A stretch of 48,701 nucleotides of DNA from Candidatus Blackburnbacteria bacterium. GTDB lineage: Bacteria > Patescibacteriota > Microgenomatia > UBA8517 > UBA10165. The stretch is from the NCBI GenBank assembly GCA_016183565.1, contig JACPEJ010000003.1:1-48701 (forward strand), given 5' to 3'. Below the pieces are notes generated by a model, which was given only the letters and a program-made list of their open reading frames with translations, had not been told where the DNA came from and did not search any database. Below are positions 35,641 through 48,701 of this stretch, piece by piece; positions within the stretch are counted from its first letter, which is position 1; each line of letters begins with the position of its first letter. Made by a program: the position numbers and the translations under genes.

Positions 35641-36452
35641 CATTTAAACCTATCCATTTTCATGGTAGCCTGACTATACCTTCACCCACTGAAACAAAAT
35701 GGGTGTCAACGTATTATGAAATGAGGTTTCTCATTTCATCTGTCCCGATGTAACTCGGGACAAGTCGATACGGGGTCAAGTTAATTAGACGATAGATGAT
35801 AGAAAATAGAAAATAGATCTTTGATGATAGAAAATAGACAATGGATTAATAAGTTTTCCAGTTATTCCTTAGGTTGGTAATTTTTCCACCTAAAGCAATA
35901 TACCTTGTAATTAACCCGTTGCAAACATCCTTATTTATAAAACCTAAATCTCTTGCCATGCTTAAATGAACTTCCATTTCATTGCAAGAGCCTAAGGACT
36001 TATCAAGGTGGACCTTAAATTCTTTTTCAAATCTCCTTTTAGCCCACCCTTCTGCAATATTTGCTGGAGGTGATTTAGAGCATCTTCTCAGTTGAGAACC
36101 TAAATCATTTTTCTCATACATTGGAAGTTTTTGACAAAGTTTGTTGACAATAATTGCCAATTCATAACTTTCTTTGTACACTCCCAAATCTTTGAAGCTC
36201 GTTATCATATCTCCATTATCTATCTTCTATCTTCAAATTACTATCTTCTACCCTCTATCATCTACCGTCCACACTAACCGACTTCCCACGGTATTACCCT
36301 GTGTCATTATTTAACTTTGAACCAAATCCAAAGTCAAGTCTGTTTTTGACCTTAAGGGCTCCACCGTTATGAGTTGATATTTCGTTCAAACCACTGGGTA
36401 GTGTTTGAACAACAGCACTCTGACGTTGCCGTCGGAGGACCCCGATATGTTG
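35641..36452 (-). mobile_element. group I intron in 23S after the E. coli U2500 equivalent
   Basis: The exon reads CUACCU|...|CGAUGUCGGCUC. The 5' exon ends in U and the intron ends in G. Core motifs GAAGGUAUAGUC (35672-35683), GACCCCGUAUCGAC (35764-35777) and GGGUAAUACCGUGGGAAGUCGG (36278-36300). Confidence 0.8.
35846..36208 (-). CDS. four-helix-bundle protein (23S rRNA intervening-sequence protein family, TIGR02436-like)
   Basis: 120 aa. FKDLGVYKESYELA, QLRRCSKSPPANIAEGW and GSCNEMEVHLSMA match the family pattern. It lies wholly inside the intron. Confidence 0.88.
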   Translation of the reverse strand: MITSFKDLGVYKESYELAIIVNKLCQKLPMYEKNDLGSQLRRCSKSPPANIAEGWAKRRFEKEFKVHLDKSLGSCNEMEVHLSMARDLGFINKDVCNGLITRYIALGGKITNLRNNWKTY

Positions 36453-36874
36453 AGGTAGCGAACCGCGCCGTCGATATGGACTCTCGGGCGCGACTACTCT
36501 GTTATCCCCGGGGTAGCTTTTATCCGTTAAGCTCGTAGTCTCCCACGAAACTATCGAGGATCACTAGGACCTGCTTTCGCACCTGCTCGGCCCGTCGGCC
36601 TCACAGTCAAGCCGGCTTATGCCCTTACACTTACAGCACGATTTCCATCCGTGCTAAGCCGACCTTTGTACTCCTGCGTTACCTTTTAGCAGGATACCGC
36701 CCCAGTAAAACTGTCCGTTAAACATTGTCCCCGAACCCGTTTGCAGGGCCCTTAGGTAAGATTTAAATTCACCAAAGAGAGGTGTTTCACTGGCCCCGCC
36801 CAAACTTTCTTGCGAAAGAATGTTGGCGGGTCCCTCCTACGCTAAACAATTGGTAAATCCAAATCAATGTCAAA

Positions 36875-36908
<34 letters not shown>

Positions 36909-37006
36909 GTGTAAGTAGGCCGCATCTTCACGGCCACTGCAATTTCACCGAGTAGAGGTTCGAGACAGCTGCCAACTCGTTACGCCTTTCGTGCAGGTCG
37001 GAACTT

Positions 37007-37210
37007 CATGTTTGTTCTCGCGCTTTCGCGGAGCATGGACTCTCTCTTCCCCCGACGTTACGTCGGGAGGTCAGCGTTTGGTCTCTACGGGGTCAACCCT
37101 TCGATTAACTCAGGGCGACTTCCCTCGGGATTACCGTGTCCACCTGTTGGCGGATTTAGGCTTCCCCGATATAGCTAACATGGGCAATTCTAGCTGCACA
37201 CTAGAGCTTT
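37007..37210 (-). mobile_element. compact ORF-less group I intron after the U1951 equivalent
   Basis: 204 nt. The 5' exon ends ...GUCGGGU and the intron ends ...AACAUG. Core motifs GGUAAUCCCGAGGGAAGUCG (37116-37137), GACCCCGUAGAGAC (37081-37094) and GAAGAGAGAGUCC (37038-37049). Confidence 0.7.
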
Positions 37211-37218
37211 ACCCGACA
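37211..37218 (-). other. 8-nt 23S micro-exon UGUCGGGU (helix 71 5' strand)
   Basis: Joining UUCCU + UGUCGGGU + AAGUUCCGACC reproduces the universal UUCCUUGUCGGGUAAGUUCCGACC. No other GUCGG partner for the CCGAC strand exists nearby. Confidence 0.65.
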
Positions 37219-38259
37219 CAATCTGTTGCTTTTTCTGACCCCACTTAAAGTAGGGCGTCTTGATATTTCTATCAAGATCTGCATGTCGCCATGCAGTTCA
37301 GACTATATTATCTCCGAATTTACTTCAGAGCTTAGCGTGTAGTCGTTGAGGCTCCGAATAAGTTTCTCCAATCTCTCCCTCATTTTGGACAATCGGGAAG
37401 GATACTGATTCATAAAAATCTTTGCAACCCTAAGAACTTCTTTCTTACTACCAACTTCCCAATGGAATAAACCATCATCGCTGCGCTTATGAATATAACC
37501 GCAACCGAGAAAGCTTTTCGCCAACTCGATAATCTTGCGATCTTTCATTGCTACAGCAAAGAACGGTTGTTGGTATAAACCAGATTTCTTTAGGCCACAT
37601 GAACCTTCGGCATCCATGATCCCAGATAAGAAAAAGCCAGTTGCATCGCTATTGTGGCGATTTACCGAGCCTTCTATCTCAAAACCATAGAGTTTAAGAT
37701 TCTTAAGACCCTTACGACATTTTTCTATTACTTCAATCTTGTCTTGAACTTTTGAGTACTTACCGATTGACGGTAAGACTTTTCCTAAAAATTCAAGCTT
37801 CTTGATTGCTATATCTCCCGCAAGAACCGGATAATCTCGAAAAAAGTTGAGAACAAATTCAACTTTTCTTCTACCTCTAAACTTGAGGTTATATCCTCCC
37901 TTAATTGGGCTGATGATTCCTTGTTCTGAAGCAATTACCCGATTAACTTCTTCCAGAAGAAATCGGTCTGCGTTGGAAACAGTTAAATCAGGAGTAAAGT
38001 AAAAACCTTTTCCTTTTTTATGAGTAGCCCGAATTATCGAACAACTCAATTCTCCAACACAAAAACCTGTGTAATAGAACTTACTAAACTCATTCGTTGC
38101 CTGCTGATTATCTGCACTTGAAGCATTGTCAGTTGAAGATGTTGGCATTAATTCCAGTATTAACCGAAATTAACCCAAAGTCAACAACTAGCTCAAGATA
38201 CTCAGACGTTCCAGCATATAGCCAAGTTTTCCCAACATATGGTTGTTGGGTCCCCTTAG
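37219..38259 (-). mobile_element. ORF-bearing intron after the U1943 equivalent (probable group I, class unassigned)
   Basis: The 5' exon ends in U, the intron ends in G (..CAGAUUG), and a GGGGA guide can pair with UUCCU. It lacks the core motifs shared by the other four introns. About 190 nt is non-coding. Confidence 0.6.
37303..38148 (-). CDS. double-motif LAGLIDADG homing endonuclease
   Basis: 281 aa. Motifs YTGFCVGELSCS and FFLSGIMDAEGSCG. Confidence 0.85.
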   Translation of the reverse strand: MPTSSTDNASSADNQQATNEFSKFYYTGFCVGELSCSIIRATHKKGKGFYFTPDLTVSNADRFLLEEVNRVIASEQGIISPIKGGYNLKFRGRRKVEFVLNFFRDYPVLAGDIAIKKLEFLGKVLPSIGKYSKVQDKIEVIEKCRKGLKNLKLYGFEIEGSVNRHNSDATGFFLSGIMDAEGSCGLKKSGLYQQPFFAVAMKDRKIIELAKSFLGCGYIHKRSDDGLFHWEVGSKKEVLRVAKIFMNQYPSRLSKMRERLEKLIRSLNDYTLSSEVNSEII

Positions 38260-38464
38260 AGGAACTTCGCTACCGTAGAACAGTTATAGTTACTGCTGCC
38301 GTTTACCGGAGCTTCATTTCTCAGCAACCGAGGCTTGCGCCCCGCCACCGATCCACTTGACTTACCGGCACTGGGCAGGCGTCAGCCCCTATACTTTGCT
38401 TTTCAGCTTTGCAGGGACCTGTGTTTTTGATAAACAGTCGGTTGGCAATCTTTAGCTGCGGCCC

Positions 38465-38580
38465 ACTCGCGCACAGCGCAAAAATTTCTAATTTGAAATT
38501 TAAAATTTGAAATGAATTTTTATTGAGATTTCATTAAAAATTGAAAATTAAAAATTAAAAATTCTTGTGCTATGCACAAG
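38465..38580 (-). repeat. hairpin-bounded rRNA mini-insertion, copy E6 (AT-rich core type B)
   Basis: The low-coordinate hairpin is degenerate (actcgcgcacagcgc). The other is cttgtgc-tat-gcacaag at 38564-38580. The core aatttctaatttgaaatttaaaatttgaaatg... is nearly identical to copy E5. Confidence 0.75.
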
Positions 38581-39134
38581 CGGGCAGGACATCTTGAAAA
38601 ACTTACGTCCAGCTTTTTTGCCGAATTCCTTAAACCTCTTTCTCTCGCTCGCCTTAGTCTTCTCGACCAGCCCACCTGTGTCGGATATCGGTACGGCTTG
38701 CCTTGTGTCTTGCTGCGAACCTTTTCTTGTAAGTTGAAAGCGCTTAGATTGCATCCCTTGCGGAACGCTTTGTATCACTGCTTGGTTAAACATCCTAACG
38801 GATTTTCCAATCAGAACTACTTAACAGCTTACACCCACCATGTTCATGGGTGGGCCTAAGACTTCCAACTCAGTCAGTCCCCAGCTATAACGACTCAAAA
38901 CAAGTAGACGAATATTAACGTCTTGTCCATCCCCTACTCCCCCGATTAAATCGGGGGGCTTAGGTTAGGCACCGACTAACCCGTCGACGACGAACGTAGC
39001 GACGGAAACCTTGGGCATACGGCGGTCCGAATTTTCATCGGACTGTACGTTACTCATACCGGCATTCTCACTACTGTACGCTCCACCCTACCTTCCAGTA
39101 GAGCTTCAATGCATACAGCACGCTCCCCTACCAT

Positions 39135-39286
39135 ACTCGCCCTCCGGGCGAGTCAGCTATAAAGCTATTGAGCTATTAGGCTATAAAAGATTTTCTTCGA
39201 AAATCTCTTCAACTTTCGTATAAAGTAAAAAGCTTCATAGCTTCATTGCGTCATTGCTTCATCGCTAACTTGTCCGAAGGACAAGT
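39135..39286 (-). repeat. hairpin-bounded rRNA mini-insertion, copy E2 (core type A, helix 45 equivalent)
   Basis: actcgccc-tcc-gggcgagt at 39135-39153 and acttgtcc-gaa-ggacaagt at 39268-39286. Confidence 0.8.
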
Positions 39287-39341
39287 ATCTCTAGTTTCGG
39301 CGCTTGGCTTAATCCTCGATAAATCTTCGGCGCTACCATCC

Positions 39342-39463
39342 ACTCGCCCTCCGGGCGAGTCAGCTATAAAGCTATTGAGCTATTAGGCTATAAAAGATTT
39401 TCTTCGAAAATCTCTTCAACTTTCGTATAAAGTAAAAAGCTTCATAGCTTCATTGCGTCATTG
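39342..39463 (-). repeat. truncated copy E3, 122 nt identical to E2
   Basis: 39342-39463 equals 39135-39256 base for base by my reading. It lacks the last 30 nt, including the acttgtcc hairpin. Confidence 0.8.
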
Positions 39464-39497
<34 letters not shown>

Positions 39498-40014
39498 GTG
39501 TCTTTGGACGGCAACTTCCTTTGCAACTTAGCCAAGATCTTAGAGGCCTTAACTGAGAGTCTGGGTTGTTTCCCTTTCGTCACACCAGCTTAGCCCGGCA
39601 TGACTGTTTCCCTTAATTTTCCACAGTTGTATTCGGAGTTTGGTTGAGATATCTTAAGTTACCTCTTGATACCCCATCCAGTGCTCTACCCCAACTGAGT
39701 TTTTTTAAAAGACGGTCCCTATAGACCTTTCGGGGAGAACCAGCTATCTCCAGGTTCGTTTGGCATTTTACCGCTAACCACAAGTCATCCGAGCACATTG
39801 CAACGTACACCGGTTCGGGCCTCCTCGCGGCATTTCTGCCGGATTCACCCTGCTCATAGTTAGATCACCTGGTTTCGGGTCTGCCCCCACGCGCATTTCC
39901 GCCGATTGGCGGATCGGGCTATTCACCCTCGCTTTCACTATGCCTTCACCACGGAGTGGCTTAGACTGCGCATGACGACAACTCGCCGGTTCATTCTTCA
40001 ATAGGCACGGTATC

Positions 40015-40129
40015 ACTCGCCCTCCGGGCGAGTCAGCTATAAAGCTATTAAGCTGTTAGGCTATGAAGTAAAAGGCTTCATAGCTCCATTGCATCATTGC
40101 TTCATCGCTAACTTGTCCGAAGGACAAGC
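40015..40129 (-). repeat. hairpin-bounded rRNA mini-insertion, copy E4 (core type A, helix 25 equivalent)
   Basis: actcgccc-tcc-gggcgagt at 40015-40033 and acttgtcc-gaa-ggacaagc at 40111-40129. Confidence 0.8.
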
Positions 40130-40413
40130 TTTACCGGTTTGTTCGCAAACAGTTTCAGGTTCTATTTCACTGGGCGTCCCGCCCATCTTTTCACCTTTCC
40201 CTCGCGGTACTAGTTCACTATCGGTCACAAGTTGTATTTAGCCTTACCCAGTGGTCTGGGTAGATTCCCACAAGATTTCTCGTGTCCCGTGGTACTCAGG
40301 AACATCCTAGAGTCCCGTTAGATTTTGTATACAAGACTTTCACTTTCTTTGGTCGACAATTCCATGTCATTCTACTATCTAACGAAATCCCACATTGGAG
40401 TCCTACAACCCCC

Positions 40414-40529
40414 ACTCGCGCGCTGCGCGAGAATTTCTAATTTGAAATTTAAAATTTGAAATGAATTTTTATTGAGATTTCATTAAAAATTGAAAATTAA
40501 AAATTTAAAATTCTTGTGCAACGCACAAG
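40414..40529 (-). repeat. hairpin-bounded rRNA mini-insertion, copy E5 (AT-rich core type B)
   Basis: actcgcgc-gct-gcgcgag at 40414-40431 and cttgtgc-aac-gcacaag at 40513-40529. Confidence 0.8.
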
Positions 40530-40573
40530 CAGGTTTGGGCTTTTCCGCTTTCGCTCGCCGCTACTAACGGAAT

Positions 40574-40612
40574 ACCTGCCCGCAATGCTACGCATAGCGT
40601 TGCAGGCGGGCT
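40574..40612 (-). repeat. ~39-nt GC hairpin insertion in 23S domain I
   Basis: Extra gcccgcaatgc..gcgttgcaggcgggc between the equivalents of ...ACCGAAGU and AUUCCGUUAGUAGCGGCGAGCG. The CCCGCC..GGCGGG theme resembles the palindrome at 44424-44461. Confidence 0.55.
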
Positions 40613-40902
40613 ACTTCGGTATCTTTTCCTCTGGGTACTTAGATGTTTCAGTTCCCCAGGTGCCCCCTGCTGCGGCTATATTCCGATAAATCGAAAATTT
40701 TACCACAGAGTCTCCGACGATGAAGTCGGAGGGGTTTCCCCATTCGGAAACCATCGGATAAATGGATGTTGGCTCCTACCCGATGAGTATCGCCGCCAAC
40801 TGCGTCCTTCTTCGGCAACTTGCACCAAGGCATTCACTGTTTGCGTTCTTTAGGACAATACAAAAACCCTTGCCACGTTCATGTAAACTGAACGTGGCCT
40901 AA

Positions 40903-40929: not shown

Positions 40930-41069
40930 TTCAAATCTCTTATCACTTTGTTTAAAATTTCAATTGTTAAAGTGCCCTTCGACTTCGCCAAGTCAGACTT
41001 GGCTTCGCTCAGGGTAAACTGACCCTGCAAAGTATGGCTTGCACTGAGCAAGCGAAGCGTGCCGAAGTG

Positions 41070-41142
41070 TGGACCCGGGCGGGATCGAACCGCCTACCTC
41101 CTCATTGCAAATGAGGTGTTCAACCAACTAAACTTCGGGCCC
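41070..41142 (-). tRNA. tRNA-Ala (UGC)
   Basis: Minus-strand cloverleaf. Acceptor GGGCCCG/CGGGTCC with G3-U70, anticodon loop TTTGCAA, T arm GGCGG-TTCGATC-CCGCC. No CCA is encoded. Confidence 0.9.
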
Positions 41143-41318
41143 GTAAAAACTGAAAAAGCTGGCAAGAGCCAGCTTTCTTATGAGAAGTTGTACAAATCAA
41201 CGGACTATACTTTGAGGCAGTATGTCCCTGACGGGATGTTTGAAAAGAGTCGGGAACTTCTCATTAATTATGCTGCTTCTTGCGCTTTAGTGTATTTTAA
41301 TCTCAATTGAGCTTGCTG

Positions 41319-42023
41319 TCAATGGGAAAGATGAATTCTCCATTTCTGTGGAATTATACAACTCTGCTCGAACATTTTTTGAACGGAACTGACCGCCTCC
41401 GCTTCCCGCCTGCGCCGAGGCTTCGGCGGGCAGGCGCTCCGGCGGAACGCTCGGGCGCGGCGGAATTCTGCTTCTAAAATAACTGGCAATTCTTTCACTC
41501 CATCACTTCCGCTAAAGTGTCCTTTAGCGTGTTCAATCGCCGTTTTCGCGCCAAGCCGTTCCTCAAAAAGTTTTTTGTTTTCTTGCGGCACAACCTCATC
41601 GTCATCGGAAAATACCGCAAAAAACTTTTTGGTATGTTGCTTCACTTTAGCAAACTCAATCGGCGTTTCCAACCACGACTTGGCAATTTCTTTTTCCTCA
41701 TCGGTTTTCAAGTTCATTAAAGTGAACCAACCGGCGACAAAAGTCGCACCTCCAACTTTTTTGTCGGCGGGCAGACTTTCCAAAAAACGGAGAATGGTTT
41801 GGCAACCGATACTGTGTCCGACAAAGTAAGTATTCTTATCAACATCGCCGACAATTTTGGAAAAGTGCGAAACCCACGCTTCAATTTTCGGCTCCTCCGA
41901 TTCCGGCATAGCCGGAACATGAACTTGAAAACCATTTTTCTCAAGCTCTGTTTTTAGCCACGGAAACCAGCCCTCATCAGGGTAGCCGTCCCAGCCGTGA
42001 ATTATGAAAGCTCGTTTAGTCAT
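41319..42023 (-). CDS. alpha/beta hydrolase (YdeN/RBBP9-like serine hydrolase) with an aberrant C-terminal extension
   Basis: The ATG at 42023 gives MTKRAFIIHGWDGYP. Nucleophile elbow GHSIG. The last ~45 codons (EFRRARAFRRSACPPKPRRRRE...) are read through a GC-rich palindromic element. Confidence 0.75.
   Translation of the reverse strand: MTKRAFIIHGWDGYPDEGWFPWLKTELEKNGFQVHVPAMPESEEPKIEAWVSHFSKIVGDVDKNTYFVGHSIGCQTILRFLESLPADKKVGGATFVAGWFTLMNLKTDEEKEIAKSWLETPIEFAKVKQHTKKFFAVFSDDDEVVPQENKKLFEERLGAKTAIEHAKGHFSGSDGVKELPVILEAEFRRARAFRRSACPPKPRRRREAEAVSSVQKMFEQSCIIPQKWRIHLSH
41385..41475. repeat. GC-rich palindromic element inside the hydrolase 3' end
   Basis: gcctgc[gccga-ggct-tcggc]gg-gcaggc hairpin. 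The 20-mer at 41449-41468 is the exact inverted copy of 2516-2535. Confidence 0.6.
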
Positions 42024-42027
42024 AAAG

Positions 42028-42360
42028 TTATGGTTCGTCCACATATTCGAGAAAAAGTTTTCTCTCGAAACCACCTCGTTCTATTTTCTTTTTCTCTTTT
42101 TGTTTTTCAACCTCAACAATCGTCGTGTTGTTGTTTAGTGCGATTGACTCCAACAACTGAAGAACATCTGATAACTCATTCAAAATTTCCTCGTCAGTTT
42201 TTGCTTCCAGTAATTCTTTTGCTTCCTCAACCAGCTTTTCTTTTAAGGCAATTTTGAATTGATCGTCATTCAATTCTGAAACTTTTGGGACAGCATTATT
42301 CTTTTTGATAATCTCTGGAATTCTATCCCTTATTAGCTTGTTATAAGTTTTCCGGTTCAT
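42028..42360 (-). CDS. MazG-like nucleoside triphosphate pyrophosphohydrolase
   Basis: 110 aa. YNKLIRDRIPEII and the KLVEEAKELLEA/ELSDVLQLLE helices are typical of small MazG-type enzymes. Confidence 0.7.
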   Translation of the reverse strand: MNRKTYNKLIRDRIPEIIKKNNAVPKVSELNDDQFKIALKEKLVEEAKELLEAKTDEEILNELSDVLQLLESIALNNNTTIVEVEKQKEKKKIERGGFERKLFLEYVDEP

Positions 42361-42540
42361 GTTATTTCAAAACTTGGTAATGAAGTTGAATTTCGTTATC
42401 AGTATCAGTTATTTTCTTTTGACCCAAAAGTTTCAACGCTTCTTTTGGCGAGTGAGCAATTAGGTGATTTGGTCCCAAAGTTTGATATTGGTGGACTCTC
42501 TACGAACAAATTCGGACTGATTTCAAAATACGAACGTCGT

Positions 42541-42610
42541 AGCTCCGGCCCCGCTTCGCGTGGCCTCCGCTTTTTTGCGCGCGCGATTTTTTGCTCGGCT
42601 GAGGCCGAGC
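42541..42610. repeat. GC-rich element
   Basis: A GC spike between AT-rich genes containing the hairpin ttgctcggc-tga-ggccgagcaa. The 85-aa ORF across it is judged spurious. Confidence 0.45.
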
Positions 42611-42618
42611 AATAAACA

Positions 42619-43365
42619 TCAAATTCTTGAATTCTTAAGTGTCGATAAGATTGTCTCAACAAGAATATTATTTTGTTCTGTTGAGGAATTAATTATATAA
42701 AAATAATCCTTTTGATTTGGAAAAACATAATCCTTGGGATCAATAGCAAGAAAATAATATTTATGAGTCCCAAGACCTCTTGATTTGTATGTAAACCCTG
42801 AGTAACTACCTATAGAAATTGGTTTTGTTGTTTCTAGCACATCTCCAACTTCTTTTGAATTTGCAACTTCCTTTTCAACAACCTGCTCCAAAGTTTGAGT
42901 TGTGGGATACTGGACTCTTTTTATTCTAAACTCAAGTCCTTCTATTTCTTTAATTTTATATTTATCAAGATTTGATTCATCAAACATTATAAAATGTGCA
43001 TAGTTATCACTCGTTTCACCATATGTAATATTTTTAGGGTGTTTTACTGTAAAACCGTCAGCTCGTGATCCTGATTCGATCCAGTCACTTGTATCAATTA
43101 GGTTTTGTTCTTGAGAAAGCGGGGTGGTAGATGGTATTGTAGATGGCAGAACTGTATCATTATTCAATGGCTTTTGTCCGGAAAGATTACTGTTCTGCTT
43201 TCCTAAGAAATAACCACCAACGCCAAAAACTAGTGAGCAAAGAACGGAAACTACAATAATTGCAGTAAGATTAGTTTTTGGCTTATCTGGAACAGTTGGT
43301 TGAGCAACTGGATTTTGGCCGACTGGTTGGGTATTTTGATTACCCACATTAATTTTATTTTCCAT
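42619..43365 (-). CDS. membrane-anchored hypothetical protein
   Basis: ATG at 43365 follows a GGAGA RBS. One TM segment (LTAIIVVSVLCSLVFGVGGYFLG) followed by an ectodomain. Confidence 0.55.
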   Translation of the reverse strand: MENKINVGNQNTQPVGQNPVAQPTVPDKPKTNLTAIIVVSVLCSLVFGVGGYFLGKQNSNLSGQKPLNNDTVLPSTIPSTTPLSQEQNLIDTSDWIESGSRADGFTVKHPKNITYGETSDNYAHFIMFDESNLDKYKIKEIEGLEFRIKRVQYPTTQTLEQVVEKEVANSKEVGDVLETTKPISIGSYSGFTYKSRGLGTHKYYFLAIDPKDYVFPNQKDYFYIINSSTEQNNILVETILSTLKNSRI

Positions 43366-43420
43366 ATTTATCTCCAAGAAAAAGTATATCATTTTCTTTT
43401 AAAAGTTGGTATATTGGAAT

Positions 43421-43504
43421 TGTAACCAACTTAATCGATTGCTTTTTTTGATGGCCGCATTGGACAGCTTGAGCAATCGAGTTGGTTACAACCAGTGCGG
43501 CCAT
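43421..43504 (+). ncRNA. interleaved inverted repeats (two mutually exclusive helices)
   Basis: A 43421-43442 pairs with A' 43473-43490 (18 bp plus a 4-nt bulge). B 43451-43463 pairs with B' 43492-43504 (13 bp, including one G-U valid only on the + strand). The order is A-B-A'-B'. Confidence 0.4.
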
Positions 43505-43594
43505 TTAAGTTTTTAGAACATTAATAATTTTTGCATTTTTCTTTTCCGCCAAGGGCGGTGTCCGAGCCGACTTTTTCGGAGGCCGAAGGCCATC

Positions 43595-43623
43595 TTGACA
43601 ATGTCTTATAATTGAGTCATAAT
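43595..43623 (+). promoter_or_regulatory. sigma70-like promoter of the phd-relE pair
   Basis: TTGACA (43595-43600), 17-nt spacer, CATAAT (43618-43623). The ATG at 43632 is only 8 nt downstream of the -10 element. Confidence 0.45.
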
Positions 43624-43631
43624 TATGATGT

Positions 43632-43910
43632 ATGAATCTACCCATTATTCCAACCATCAAATCGGTAACTGATCTTAGATATCAAACCGCAGATATTATA
43701 AAGCTTTTAGAGCAAAACCAGCCCGTAGTAGTGACAAGAGATAATGACACTATCGCAGTTATACTTTCTCCCACCCAATATCAACAAATTATTCACCTTT
43801 TTGAAGAACTAGAAGAAGAAAAAGCAGTACAAAGATTGGAGAAGGCAATTAAAAAAGGAGGAAAGTTTATTGATTTTGACTTATTTGACAACAAACAACG
43901 TAAAAAGTAA
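43632..43910 (+). CDS. Phd/YefM family antitoxin
   Basis: 92 aa. SVTDLRYQTADIIKLLEQNQPVVVTRDNDTIAVILS is the typical Phd/YefM N-terminus. Confidence 0.8.
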   Translation: MNLPIIPTIKSVTDLRYQTADIIKLLEQNQPVVVTRDNDTIAVILSPTQYQQIIHLFEELEEEKAVQRLEKAIKKGGKFIDFDLFDNKQRKK

Positions 43911-43922
43911 AAGGTTGCCTAA

Positions 43923-44183
43923 ATGTACAAGATCTTCATCGAAAAGAAGGCGGCAAAATTTCTCTCCAAGTTAGACTCAAAAACTTACCGAATAGTCTCA
44001 AATGCCATCAAGAAACTCTCCCACTTTCATGAAACAAAAAATTTAGACATAAAACCTCTTAAGGGAAAATTTGAAAATATGCTAAGACTTAGAGTTGGAT
44101 CAAGAAGGGTTCTTTTCACCGTTAATGAACTGAAAAAAGAAATTAAGATTTGGATTATAGAAAACCGAGGAGATATTTATTGA
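43923..44183 (+). CDS. RelE/ParE family toxin
   Basis: 86 aa. KKAAKFLSKLD and LRLRVGSRRVLFTV..I.IWIIENRGDIY patterns. Confidence 0.8.
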   Translation: MYKIFIEKKAAKFLSKLDSKTYRIVSNAIKKLSHFHETKNLDIKPLKGKFENMLRLRVGSRRVLFTVNELKKEIKIWIIENRGDIY

Positions 44184-44230
44184 AAAATGTGGCGAGCGCC
44201 ATTCCCGACTCGCAGAATTCTCCATTTCTG

Positions 44231-44302
44231 TGGGTGCGCATGGAATCGAACCATGTACTTCTAAATTATCAGTTTAGCGTTCTGCCAGTGAACTACGCAC
44301 CC
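44231..44302 (-). tRNA. tRNA-Ile (GAU)
   Basis: Minus-strand cloverleaf. Acceptor GGGTGCG/CGCACCC, anticodon loop CTGATAA, T arm CATGG-TTCGATT-CCATG. No CCA is encoded. Confidence 0.9.
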
Positions 44303-44784: not shown

Positions 44785-45348
44785 TCACCTTAGGACCCAC
44801 TTAATTGCGGGTACTTCGGGTGCCCCCAACTTTGCTGGCTTGACGGATTGCACTTTACTTGAGGTTGTAGTGCGTTCCCACCCGACGAGCGGATTTCCCG
44901 CACCGGGCGAGCCGAAATGTTTTTGAAGCTCGTTATGAAGTGTATTCATTGTGAGCTTTAACTGCCAAACTTTATTTAATTCCTCTTTTGTAAGCTTGCG
45001 TATATCTTGCCGACCACGAACGATCTGAGCAACACGAGCAAACCTTTCAAAAGATTCCCTTTTGACACCTTGTAAGTGGTGTTTTTGGAAAAATGGAACT
45101 ATTGAGCCGTAGATCTCGGCTTGTCGAGTTACCTCATAAACGAAGGTTGTTTTGTGCTTGTCGTTGCCTTGAAATTTTCTATATACATAACCAACTTTAA
45201 AAAATTCAAAAACTTTATCTAAAAGTTCCTTATTATCAAAGCGTTGCGTAATAAAATATCTTAAGACGATTCGACAATCTGGCCTTATTTGAACCAGAAA
45301 ACATCCCTCGCCATCAGTTAACCCAACAATATAGTCTGCAGTTAGCAT
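44785..45348 (-). CDS. single-motif LAGLIDADG homing endonuclease
   Basis: 187 aa. DYIVGLTDGEGCF motif. The last ~20 codons run past the insertion boundary (44846) into the helix 44 exon. Confidence 0.8.
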   Translation of the reverse strand: MLTADYIVGLTDGEGCFLVQIRPDCRIVLRYFITQRFDNKELLDKVFEFFKVGYVYRKFQGNDKHKTTFVYEVTRQAEIYGSIVPFFQKHHLQGVKRESFERFARVAQIVRGRQDIRKLTKEELNKVWQLKLTMNTLHNELQKHFGSPGAGNPLVGWERTTTSSKVQSVKPAKLGAPEVPAIKWVLR

Positions 45349-45735
45349 TCCGTAGATTCCTTCGGTATTGATTCGGGTATATATCCAGCTTATGTGAATA
45401 TCTACCTTCTGTCAATACCTACTATGAATCTGCTGACTTCCTGTAAGGTAATTACCTCCACCCTAACAGGATCTCCGTGGGTCATTATATTCTCTCTTCT
45501 AAACATGAATGACGGATTTTCTTTAGCTGACTTCCTTCCGACCGCCCGGCGAAAGTCGCCAATCCTCTTTTGTGTCATCCCTGTTCTTTGTCTCAGGCCC
45601 TCCAACCAAATTAGTTACCCAATCTGGTCTGCCATTTTTGACTACGTTTGCACAGACGTTATGCAAAGGTAGGACTTCAACCTACTAGAGGATATAACTG
45701 CCACGCGCGTTCTAGTACTCAAGCTGAATACTATA
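44846..45735 (-). mobile_element. unclassified 890-nt insertion in the 16S decoding centre (between C1403/C1404 equivalents)
   Basis: Flanks read ACACCGCC | ... | CGUCAAGCC. With the 1-nt C ambiguity, neither possible boundary gives an exon-U/intron-G pair. The shared group I core motifs are not seen. Confidence 0.65.
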
Positions 45736-46067
45736 GGCGGTGTGTACAAAGAGCGAGAACGTATTCACCGCGGTTTAGCTGACCCGCGATTACTACCAAT
45801 TCCAAGTTCATGCAGGCGAGTTGCAGCCTGCAATCCCAACTGAGAGAAGGTTTGAGGGATTAGCTCCGCCTCGCGGCTTGGCAACCCATTGTCCTTCCCA
45901 TTGTAGTATGTGTGTTGCCCCGGATATAAGGGCCATGCGGACTTGACGTCGTCCCCTCCTTCCTCCCGAGCTAAGCTCGGGCAGTCCCATATGAACAATT
46001 TAACATATGGCAGGGGTTGCGCTCGTTGCGGCACTTAAGCCTACACCCTACGGCACGAGCTGACGAC

Positions 46068-46870
46068 CACGTTTATTTAACTATTACTAGTAGCGTGGAC
46101 TATACCTTCACCCCGACGTTACGTCGGGGGCCAACCGTATGAATGGTACTTTAAAAGTTTCCATTCTCACCCCGCCCTTATGCGGGGATCAGTCTCTACG
46201 GGGCAAAAGTTTGACCGAATATTTTTGCAGCTCAGGTAAAACTTCATCCCAAAATTTTCTTTTAAGATAAAGAACCCAAGTGCCTGCAGAATCGTAGTGA
46301 TACAAGCTAACATTTGTTTTTCCAAACAAACTCACATCTCTTATCGCATCGTCTTGATTTCCGTAGGCTATACGTACTCTCAAACGTGCTCCTTTATCAA
46401 CAGAACCATCTCCATCTATCCTGCCAGCCAAATAAGCTGGTAGAAATTTATCAGGAACAGTAAAGTTTTTCTCCTTAAAAGGTAGAAGAAACCTTACAAA
46501 CGCTCTGTTGTTAACGTAAAGATGATATGCTACTTGTTTTCTTTTTCTCCCAACTGGCTTATAAAGCCTGTATTTTATAATACAGTTTGGCAGGTGTCTT
46601 TTAAGAAAAGACTCGAACCTTCTTATAAGTCGCATATCGGTAGAAGAAAGACCAATAGAACTTGACCACCAATAACCATCTGCAAGCCAAAGACCTAAAA
46701 TATAGAAATCTTCAGCAGTTTTCGGCCACACTTTGCTTCCCACGGTATTACCCTTTGATATTTCATCTTAACCCGAAGGTTAACCGAAAATCAAGTGGGG
46801 CTTCACCGTTTTGGGTTGGTTATTTTTGTCCGACGTTACCATCGGACCGGCCATCATCCCTTGCGGGACT
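46068..46870 (-). mobile_element. group I intron in 16S after the U1060 equivalent
   Basis: Exons read GCAUGGCU | ... | GUCGUCAGCUCGUG. P1 is UGGCU/GGCCG and P10 is GAUGAU/GUCGUC. Core motifs GAAGGUAUAGUCC (46098-46109), GCCCCGUAGAGAC (46192-46204) and GGGUAAUACCGUGGGAAG (46737-46755). The intron ends in G. Confidence 0.8.
46189..46743 (-). CDS. compact double-motif LAGLIDADG homing endonuclease
   Basis: 184 aa with a GTG start. Motifs ILGLWLADGYW and YLAGRIDGDGSV. Both ORF ends overlap conserved intron core motifs. Confidence 0.75.
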   Translation of the reverse strand: MGSKVWPKTAEDFYILGLWLADGYWWSSSIGLSSTDMRLIRRFESFLKRHLPNCIIKYRLYKPVGRKRKQVAYHLYVNNRAFVRFLLPFKEKNFTVPDKFLPAYLAGRIDGDGSVDKGARLRVRIAYGNQDDAIRDVSLFGKTNVSLYHYDSAGTWVLYLKRKFWDEVLPELQKYSVKLLPRRD

Positions 46871-47275: not shown

Positions 47276-47739
47276 CAAGTTTGTTGCACAAACTTAAATT
47301 CAAAATTTAAAGTTCAAAATGCAAAATTACATTTTAAAATTAAAGGTTGAAAAAGTTTCGGCTAAGACATTTCTGCTCAGCTCTCCATGTTGCCATGGAG
47401 GTCGGACTATATCTTCATCCCGAGCTAAGCTCGGGAGCCGACGTGTAGTCTCTACGGGGTCAAGTTACTATTGAGGCTAGACAGTAGAAACTAGATGTTA
47501 GAACTTGATGCTAGATGTTTGAGCCTAGTAGGTGCTTTACAAACTTCTAAATCACGAAACGTCTTTTATCATCAAGCATCGACCTTCTAACTTCAAGGTC
47601 GAACTTCTAATTTCCATCGTCTAACCTCAACATAACCGACTTCCCTCGGTATTACCCTTCGACTTTGTTCAGGGCTTCACCGATACAGTTGGATTTTCTC
47701 ACGTAGTGTTACCACTACGGGGGACTAGAGACAAGCTCC
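47276..47739 (-). mobile_element. ORF-less group I intron in 16S after the U788 equivalent
   Basis: Exons read GCGAAAGGGAU | ... | UAGAGACCCCUGUAGUCC. P1 is GGGAU/GUCCC and P10 is GUCUCUA/UAGAGAC. Core motifs GAAGAUAUAGUCC (47404-47416), GACCCCGUAGAGAC (47448-47461) and GGGUAAUACCGAGGGAAGUCGG (47636-47659). Confidence 0.82.
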
Positions 47740-48294
47740 ATCCCTTTCGCTCCCCTAGCTTTCGTTCCTCAGCGTCAGATATTTCCTAGGTGCCCGCCTT
47801 CGCTGTTGGTGTTCCTGTCGATATCAACGGATTTCACCCCTCCACCGACAGTTCCAGCACCCCCGGAAGATCTCTAAGCATGATCGTATCTTGCGACCAA
47901 TCCCGATTAAGTCGAGATCTTTAACACAAGACGCATCACGCCGCCTACGAACTCTTTACGCCCAGTAAATCCGGACAACGCTTGCACCCTCCGCATTACC
48001 GAGGCTTCTGGCACGGAGTTAGCAGGTGCTTATTCTCCCCGACGTGTGTCGGGACAAAAGGAGTTTACAACCCGAAGGCCTTCATCCCCCACGCGGCGTC
48101 GCGGCGTCAGACTTTCGTCCATTGCGCACGATTCCCGGTTGCTGCCACCCGTAGGTGTAAGGACCGTGTCTCAGTTCCTTTCTGGGGGGTCGTGCTCTCA
48201 CACCCCCTACCCGTCATAGCCTTGGTAGGCCGTTACCCTACCAACTAGCTGATAGGCCGCAGGTCGTTCCCTAAGCGCGCCGTTAAGCGCTTTT

Positions 48295-48438
48295 ACTCAC
48301 GCACAGCACGAGTCAGCCATAAAACAGCAAAGCTGTCTTCAACTTCGTATAAAGCTATTAGGCTATAAAGCTATGATGTCTTTTCTTCATAGCTCCATAG
48401 CTTCATTGATACATAGCTAACTTGTGCTATGCACAAGT
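48295..48438 (-). repeat. hairpin-bounded rRNA mini-insertion, copy E8 (core type A)
   Basis: actcacgc-aca-gcacgagt at 48295-48313 and acttgtgc-tat-gcacaagt at 48420-48438. The core is nearly identical to E7. Confidence 0.8.
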
Positions 48439-48520
48439 GGTATGGAGTATTACCCCGTCTTTCGACGAGCTATTCTTCTCCCTAAGGTAAGTTCTCACGC
48501 GTTACTCACCCGTCTGCCAC

Positions 48521-48639
48521 TCTCGTGCGAAGCACGAGAACTACGAACTGAGAACTTAGAACAAAGAATAAAAATAAATTATTCCTTATTGTTCTTAGTT
48601 CTTGGTTCTTTGTTCATAGTGCTTGTGCTCCGCACAAGC
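48521..48639 (-). repeat. hairpin-bounded insertion, copy E9 (core type C, expands h6)
   Basis: tctcgtgc-gaa-gcacgaga at 48521-48539 and gcttgtgc-tcc-gcacaagc at 48621-48639. The core is a long gaacttagaac/gttcttagttc hairpin. Confidence 0.7.
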
Positions 48640-48657
48640 GTTCGACTTGCATGCCTA

Positions 48658-48700
<43 letters not shown>

Positions 48701-48701
48701 A

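Follow-up and report, generated by a model that had tools for sequence, protein, structure and literature searches.

The 48,701-nt stretch of a Candidatus Blackburnbacteria genome analysed here (positions 1 to 48,701 of contig JACPEJ010000003.1, assembly GCA_016183565.1, referred to below as the window) carries a 16S rRNA gene on its minus strand that is interrupted in the decoding centre by an 890-nt insertion. This insertion is very likely a compact group II intron whose backbone is IIC-like and whose domain 4 (D4) holds a single-motif LAGLIDADG gene in place of a reverse transcriptase (RT), and a member of a lineage that occupies positions 1396-1402 of bacterial 16S genes, mostly in the Candidate Phyla Radiation (CPR, Patescibacteria). 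A first-pass annotation had reported a LAGLIDADG-bearing insertion of 890 nt that splits the decoding centre, which alignment of both exons to the Rfam model of bacterial small subunit (SSU) rRNA confirmed. The further implication of that annotation, an unrecognised type of element or a fragmented rRNA, was not supported: the insertion has a covarying group II fold and a loop complementary to both exons.

The insertion lies within the sequence ACACCGC/CCGUCA, where the slash marks the junction, as it does below. The SSU model aligned the 5' exon through ...UGUACACACCGCC (...UUGUACACACCGCC), with its end at 45736, and the alignment resumed in the 3' exon with CGUCA (CGUCAAGCC) at 44845, leaving 890 nt that are foreign to 16S rRNA. 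From the window alignment alone the boundary is ambiguous by one C, and the first-pass annotation had accordingly offered either C1403/C1404 or 1402/1403; the ambiguity was real, and the related loci decide for C1402/C1403. In one relative (L013) the exon reads ...CACCGC followed by A. Relatives with an insertion after position 1398 have an unambiguous boundary and an intron that ends in ...AAU, and only a junction after C1402 yields a canonical 3' AY together with a branch-point A at -8. Because these observations agree with one another and with the covariation of the exon-binding loop described below, the alignments place the window intron between C1402 and C1403, at 45736..44847. Neither candidate boundary gives the exon-U/intron-G pair of a group I intron, as had been pointed out: the last exon nucleotide is C, and that of the insertion is U or C.

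The open reading frame (ORF) of the insertion has 210 database homologues, most of them about 160 aa long; the named ones come from Patescibacteria, and the closest from metagenome-assembled genomes (MAGs) of Daviesbacteria and Microgenomates. A scan of GTDB species genomes gave 423 related stretches, from which 80 loci (designated by L numbers below) were retrieved as the comparative set. The fold comparison drew on about 58 related loci, with 54 sequences in the alignment of domains 5 and 6 (D5 and D6), 59 in the alignment of domains 1 to 3 (D1-D3; alignment A3) and 60 copies in a survey of stop codons. Loci L002-L031 share the 16S insertion site of the window copy. In the more distant loci L032-L080, in which the LAGLIDADG homing endonuclease (LHE) is only 30-40% identical, the same RNA backbone was found at neighbouring 16S positions, namely after A1398 in most of them, after C1399 in three (L050, L056 and L075) and after A1396 in one. 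The last of these, L067, lies on contig CAVVPN010000011.1 of a Gemmataceae MAG and has its intron at the site known from Thiomargarita. Related LAGLIDADG genes also occur in MAGs labelled as other non-CPR groups, Spirochaetota (L017) and Omnitrophota (L048); among these three the intron RNA was confirmed only in the Gemmataceae locus. Many loci labelled 'uncultured Gammaproteobacteria' share the CPR-associated LHE and intron, and their labels may be binning artefacts.

A D5 and a D6 were identified at the 3' end of the insertion. D5 is 33 nt long, with a 2-nt bulge on its 3' strand and a loop that reads GAAAN in the alignment. Its 13 pairs are paired in 99.4% of cases across the 54 sequences, and seven of them show double compensatory changes. 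The pairs at the base of the helix (U.G, C.G, G.U and C.G) are invariant or nearly so, a single G.U to G-C change having been found in the 54 sequences. All four basal pairs of D6 covary, and the bulged A of D6 is invariant throughout the same set, being followed by 4 nt and then AAU before the exon. For D5 and D6 together, 96.4% of the alignment cells are paired and 13 of the 19 pairs have changed on both sides. The covariation score of this region was 0.472, compared with 0.136 for shuffled alignments (0 of 500 reached 0.472) and at most 0.07 when the pairing partners were slid. A covariance model of D5-D6 was built from 46 relatives with the window sequence excluded; it matched the 48.7-kb window exactly once, at 44919..44844 on the minus strand (85.9 bits, E = 9e-24).

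Upstream of D5, the closing helix of D4 encloses the ORF and covaries with the start codon, such that AUG stands opposite CAU and GUG opposite CAC. Further variants of the helix are CGUAAUG paired with CAUUACG and CCUAAUG paired with CAUUAGG. The RNAalifold consensus of 59 sequences contains 64 pairs in D1-D3, of which 55 show compensatory changes, so that with the D4 helix and D5-D6 the insertion has the six-domain architecture of a group II intron. The outermost stem of D1 covaries as CNNGG paired with CCNNG, and J2/3 and D3 bear the signature AGUCAGCAGA...CAUAGUA...GAAGG that is modelled by RF01998. A scan with group II models, which the first-pass annotation had proposed, gave weak matches in the window: RF01998 (group-II-D1D4-1) at 45474..45357 with 28 bits (cut-off 35) and RF02012 at 45659..45564 with 20 bits (cut-off 34). 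Two relatives with a shorter D3 exceeded the RF01998 cut-off, L073 with 38.8 bits and L026 with 36.9 bits, and the full covarying fold bore out what these matches had suggested.

The 5' end of the intron departs from the usual group II arrangement. Directly 5' of the D1 stem, the 59 aligned sequences have the pentanucleotide NNG[C/U]G, in which G3, Y4 and G5 are conserved and positions 1 and 2 are free; a true GUGCG was found in relatives L046 and L075. A linker separates this pentanucleotide from the exon. It is 7-40 nt long in the relatives and variable in sequence, and often, but not always, forms a hairpin; the hairpin of the window linker has a predicted stability of -7.8 kcal/mol (z -2.6). 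Such a 5'-terminal insertion or linker has already been described for rRNA group II introns with LAGLIDADG genes (PMC4424553; PMC13190283). As a separate observation, GCUUGAG of the linker (45693-45699, minus strand) is complementary over 7 bp to CUCAAGU of the D6 loop (44857-44863). The D6 loop is conserved among the site-1402 copies as AACCUYAA, and because the linker is unconserved this complementarity in the window sequence is probably due to chance.

Exon recognition was assigned to a D1 hairpin whose loop, GGGCGGU, is complementary to the ligated junction ACCGC/CC, that is, to five nucleotides of exon 1 and two of exon 2. The GCGGU part corresponds to exon-binding site 1 (EBS1), and its partner is the intron-binding site 1 (IBS1) at the end of the 5' exon. 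The loop is complementary to its own junction at all seven positions in 27 of 27 copies at site 1402 and in 24 of 29 at site 1398. At site 1398 the junction ACACA/CC is accompanied by the loop GGUGUGU, and where the exon carries the variant A1396U the junction ACUCA/CC is accompanied by GGUGAGU. Relatives at site 1399 combine the junction CUCAC/CG with the loop (C/U)GGUGAG, the CG of the 3' exon facing C/U-G in the loop, and the relative at site 1396 combines GUACA/CA with UGUGUAC, where CA faces UG. At site 1402 itself, an exon polymorphism in L018 that changes the junction to ACUGC is matched by the loop GGGCAGU. The loop thus tracks four insertion sites (1396, 1398, 1399 and 1402) and two exon polymorphisms. 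This natural covariation gives strong support to the predicted EBS1-IBS1 pairing and to a delta-like contact with the 3' exon.

The ORF product is predicted to be a LAGLIDADG homing endonuclease from its sequence family and from the motif IVGLTDGEGCF. Pfam assigned the D4 ORF to LAGLIDADG_1 only, and no reverse transcriptase or maturase domain was found in it by Pfam. The match to solved I-OnuI-family structures is confined to residues 5-136; the fold stops close to residue 136, and conservation in the family alignment is lost after N135. The first-pass annotation had the ORF running about 60 nt past the intron boundary into helix 44, and this is correct, the stop codon lying 59 nt past the 3' boundary inside the helix 44 exon sequence. 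The C-terminal tails of the homologues fall into two families, ...GSPGAGNPLVGWER and ...SARPVREIRSxGGN, which are one nucleotide sequence read in two frames, indicating that the RNA and not the protein is conserved there. The position of the stop codon relative to the 3' splice site ranges from -448 to +80 at site 1402 and from -448 to +87 across the 60 copies, and 8 of 27 site-1402 copies, including that of the window, read through into exon 2. Because the fold match ends at residue 136, conservation is lost after N135 and stop positions vary, the tail is best read from the sequence as translated D4-3', D5 and D6 plus 59 nt of exon 2, an overrun that is incidental and recurrent and not designed. 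In three relatives (L008, L013 and L023) the endonuclease ORF is truncated by premature stops while the ribozyme is intact; a truncated ORF with an intact ribozyme is the usual decay stage of the homing endonuclease cycle. It was also observed that the conserved 3' strand of D3, GAAGGA (45357-45362, minus strand), precedes the start codon of the endonuclease by about 10 nt, and it could double as the Shine-Dalgarno sequence of this gene.

Several features weigh against a group II intron of this class. The 5' end of the window intron is not GUGYG, with G1 and U2 unconserved, and the 5' splice site does not lie immediately before the pentanucleotide, since the 26-nt linker intervenes. In D5, a 4-bp helix carries a pentaloop in place of a GNRA tetraloop above 5 bp. 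In four relatives (L015, L021, L040 and L049), a structured insert of 35-50 nt separates ...GGGU from GGGAAC in the 3' strand of the D5 base, facing the catalytic triad. It lies roughly 60-110 nt ahead of the 3' splice site and is unexpected in a catalytic helix. The window copy stays below the RF01998 cut-off (28 against 35 bits), and the Rfam D5-D6 model RF00029 gave no match in the window insertion in scans at E<=10. The assignment to IIC rests on the CGC triad, the small size of the ribozyme (about 420-450 nt), the J2/3-D3 similarity and the published class of a sister family, and not on a phylogeny of our own. Some of these features would also fit a decayed group II intron, in which self-splicing has been lost and removal of the insertion falls to host nucleases or to a factor acting in trans, leaving the 16S rRNA either ligated or fragmented: the 5' splice site is displaced with loss of G1 and U2, the D5 loop is non-canonical and the Rfam D5-D6 model is blind to the intron, some relatives have broken ORFs or D5 inserts, and, according to PMC4748821, IIC introns commonly hydrolyse in vitro and are poor branchers despite a normal-looking branch site. 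We nevertheless consider such decay improbable. The compensatory changes throughout D1-D6 and the retargeting of the loop at four sites show continuing selection on both the ribozyme and the exon pairing, and a decoding centre broken at 1402/1403 would probably not be tolerated, the 16S gene often being the sole copy. Moreover, 7 of the 10 related loci scanned have a full-length 16S alignment to the Rfam model that scores above 1,200 bits.

LAGLIDADG ORFs usually travel with group I introns, and two other insertions in the same 16S gene are group I-like, so that a group I intron whose boundaries are shifted or unusual was also considered. The group I model RF00028 gave no match inside the 890-nt insertion at E<=10, either in a scan of 4.1 kb or in one of 981 nt alone, while the same scans did match the two other insertions, at 47743..47383 (46 bits) and 46192..46077 (28.5 bits). 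A motif search did not find the GARGRUAUAGUC core in the 890-nt insertion and did find it in both of the others, in line with the missing GAAGRUAUAGUCC-type core of the first-pass annotation and its judgement that this is no canonical group I intron. With neither boundary showing an exon U or a terminal G, and with the sequence accounted for by a complete covarying group II fold, the group I explanation was refuted in practice and retains hardly any probability. The same applies to an archaeal-type bulge-helix-bulge intron or an end-paired intervening sequence excised by RNase III. The junction regions of the window can pair, forming a duplex of -24.8 kcal/mol on co-folding, but the splice sites then fall within an internal loop of 2x2 nt, whereas a bulge-helix-bulge would hold them in two bulges of 3 nt separated by 4 bp, so that the check for this motif proposed in the first-pass annotation came out negative. 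The end pairing also needs the 5' linker, which varies among the relatives, and excision by RNase III would leave the decoding centre fragmented. Both of these candidates were rejected.

For a group II intron with the features described, the following course of events can be proposed. The pre-16S transcript would fold into domains 1-6, and the D1 loop GGGCGGU would base-pair with the terminal ACCGC of exon 1 and the initial CC of exon 2, thereby setting both splice sites and holding the exons. With such a fold and a loop that pairs with both exons, the intron would possess the machinery for precise ligation. D5, with its CGC triad and 2-nt bulge, would form the catalytic centre for two transesterifications. 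With the 5' splice site 26 nt upstream of ACGCG, the linker would loop out, and the first step at this displaced site could proceed by attack of the 2'-OH of the bulged A in D6 (branching) or by water (hydrolysis). The freed exon 1 would then attack after ...AAU, exactly restoring ACACCGCCCGUCA, a universally conserved 16S sequence. At the DNA level, a homodimer of the putative endonuclease may cut intron-less 16S rDNA near the insertion site, and repair would copy the intron in by DNA homing without an RT. The likely target, UUGUAC...GUCAA, is loosely palindromic around 1399/1400 and would suit a homodimer; such a target would explain, as we infer, why the insertion sites are clustered within six nucleotides. 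Sequestration of the start codon in the D4 stem suggests that translation is probably limited mainly to nascent RNA.

The element is a group II intron of a kind that has already been reported. A survey of insertions in CPR 16S genes catalogued "group II intron-like ISs" (16IS9) only at position ~1400, of which 39 of 53 encode LHEs and none an RT (Tsurumaki et al. 2024, J Bacteriol, PMC11270868). The window element shares with 16IS9 the host group, the gene region, the LAGLIDADG_1 ORF, the lack of an RT and the weak similarity to Rfam group II models, and almost certainly falls inside this class; a comparison with catalogued CPR insertions had also been suggested by the first-pass annotation. 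The 16IS9 description consists of a coarse position and an Rfam call, without the fold, the exact junctions, the exon-binding site or the subdivision into sites 1396, 1398, 1399 and 1402.

A second comparison is offered by rns-1396, which Liu et al. 2026 (GBE, PMC13190283) defined as a single bacterial family of group II introns with LHEs. Its backbone is of the IIC type, D4 holds a single-motif LHE, every member has a 5' linker, and EBS2 is not evident. The family includes Thiomargarita namibiensis S1396 (Salman et al. 2012, as cited in PMC13190283), and the main text of PMC13190283 reports it only in Thiotrichaceae. The window intron has the single-motif LHE in D4 and the 5'-terminal linker. 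The Gemmataceae intron at site 1396, which aligns with it throughout D1-D6, has an EBS1 loop, UGUGUAC, like the published rns-1396 loop. The rns-1396 introns are inserted after A1396, whereas the window intron lies 6 nt downstream, after C1402, and its IBS1/EBS1 pair is ACCGC/GCGGU in place of the UGUACA type. EBS3 of rns-1396 is placed elsewhere in D1 (PMC13190283), whereas in the window intron the two nucleotides beside EBS1 pair with the 3' exon. Thiomargarita was compared with the window intron by its published description, and identity of the two sites was rejected, the junction in Table S4 of PMC13190283, ..UUGUACA/CACCGC.., being 6 nt upstream.

Splice sites displaced from GUGYG are known from other group II introns. 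In fungal mitochondrial rRNA introns that carry LHEs, 1-33 nt of intron precede GUGYG and EBS2 has been lost (PMC4424553); examples include Grifola frondosa SSUI1 (Toor & Zimmerly 2002; Li et al. 2011, as summarised in PMC4424553). These introns resemble that of the window in their rRNA host, in an LHE in place of an RT and in the displaced 5' splice site. They are of class IIB1, often have double-motif LHEs and typically lack the branch-point A, whereas the lineage described here is IIC-like and its bulged A is invariant. Clostridium tetani C.te.I1 is cited in PMC4424553 as a bacterial group II intron that splices 8 nt upstream of GUGYG; it differs from the window intron in its class, in encoding an RT and in having a protein-coding gene as its host.

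The group IIC intron of Oceanobacillus iheyensis (O.i.I1), whose crystal structure was reportedly determined by Toor et al. in 2008, matches the window intron in its small ribozyme, its CGC triad with a central G.U and its 2-nt D5 bulge, and its J2/3-D3 sequence is similar to the AGUCAGCAGA..CAUAGUA...GAAGG of the window. It differs in having GUGUG at the splice site and a terminator-hairpin target with a short IBS1, and in belonging to an RT-encoding class of retroelements.

An rRNA region on the minus strand of the window comprises the 16S gene (truncated at 48701), tRNA-Ile and tRNA-Ala with several protein genes between them, and the 23S and 5S genes. The features of the intron, and the two group I-like insertions of the same 16S gene, are listed in Table 1.

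Table 1. Coordinates of the intron, its domains and flanking exon contacts, and of two further insertions in the 16S gene of the window
Feature	Coordinates	Strand	Basis
Whole intron, 890 nt, between 16S C1402 (45737) and C1403 (44846)	44847..45736	-	Rfam SSU alignment of exons; boundary from relatives
IBS1, last 5 nt of 5' exon, ACCGC (16S 1398-1402)	45737..45741	-	Complementary to EBS1 loop
5'-terminal linker (most of it; full 26 nt 45736-45711), 9-bp hairpin	45711..45735	-	Comparison of relatives
GUGYG-equivalent pentanucleotide ACGCG	45706..45710	-	Alignment A3
Domain 1; closing stem CGUGG (45705-45701) with CCACG (45480-45476); GUAA-capped hairpin 45628-45605	45476..45705	-	RNAalifold
D1 hairpin with exon-binding loop GGGCGGU (45547-45541); GCGGU = EBS1	45529..45557	-	Junction complementarity
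Domain 2 (short)	45435..45475	-	Covarying helices, A3 columns 498-531 / 574-615; part of RF01998 match
J2/3 (AGCAGA, 45434-45429) and domain 3 (UUCAUAGUAGG...CCGAAGGAA)	45357..45434	-	RF01998 match; covarying D3 helices
Domain 4; closing helix CGGAAUG (45352-45346, includes start codon) with CAUUUCG (44919-44913), encloses ORF	44913..45352	-	Covariation
LAGLIDADG_1 single-motif homing endonuclease ORF, 187 aa	44785..45348	-	Pfam E 2e-12; PDB E 3e-19
Domain 5; 9-bp lower helix, CGC triad with central G.U, UC bulge, 4-bp upper helix, GAAAU loop	44878..44910	-	Covariation
Domain 6; invariant bulged A (44854) 8 nt upstream of 3' splice site; intron ends AAU (44849-44847)	44850..44873	-	Covariation
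First two 3'-exon nt (C1403, C1404), paired with GG 5' of EBS1, delta-like	44845..44846	-	Covariation across sites
Group I-like insertion 1 of the same 16S	47383-47743	-	RF00028 46 bits (cut-off 50); GAAGRUAUAGUC core
Group I-like insertion 2 of the same 16S	46077-46800	-	28.5-bit partial match; GAAGRUAUAGUC core; LAGLIDADG_3 ORF 46743..46189

The rRNA region shows further expansions. Near the 5' end of the 16S gene, the sequence exceeds the Rfam model by two expansion segments, of about 124 and 96 nt (48290-48440 and 48530-48640, minus strand), which gave only spurious matches to microRNA families. The 23S gene (36342-40860, minus strand) is 4519 nt long against a model of 2925 positions, with about 1.6 kb of insertions; the Rfam alignment showed insertions of 18, 39 and 107 nt as well as longer ones. 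The 16S-23S spacer of about 3.85 kb (41069-44302) has protein genes between tRNA-Ile(GAT) and tRNA-Ala(TGC). They comprise a Phd/YefM antitoxin (43632-43910, plus strand), an 86-aa partner without a Pfam match that is possibly a toxin (43923-44183), a 257-aa ORF without a Pfam match, a MazG/PRA-PH-like ORF and a Ser_hydrolase.

On this reading the 16S gene of the window is neither a pseudogene nor a split rRNA; it carries an intron predicted to be precisely excisable, with the decoding-centre sequence restored after splicing. More generally, the presence of a LAGLIDADG ORF need not mean that an intron is of group I. This lineage of 16S group II introns with LHEs escapes Rfam at its standard thresholds, and 16S annotation and surveys with 1392/1406-type primers will therefore mis-handle such genes. 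In the searchable literature, the coverage of which is incomplete, no paper was found on the fold, on the sites 1398, 1399 and 1402 or on the co-varying loop. What is potentially new is this layer only: the site shifts with retargeting of the loop, the presence of a linker in an intron that has kept its branch A, and the placement of the start codon within D4. These features, with four sites tracked by one co-varying loop, a branch A kept despite the 5' linker and a start codon locked in D4, are leads for ribozyme biology. They may mean that one RT-less lineage with a LAGLIDADG gene moved repeatedly among four neighbouring bonds (after 1396, 1398, 1399 and 1402) by re-tuning a single 7-nt loop, while keeping its 5' linker, its branch A and the paired start codon, and that rns-1396 is then a minor offshoot of a much larger, CPR-centred family; we put the chances of this at about even. 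If it is true, the lineage would offer a natural system in which to study changes of splice site in a group II intron that moves by DNA homing and does without reverse splicing.

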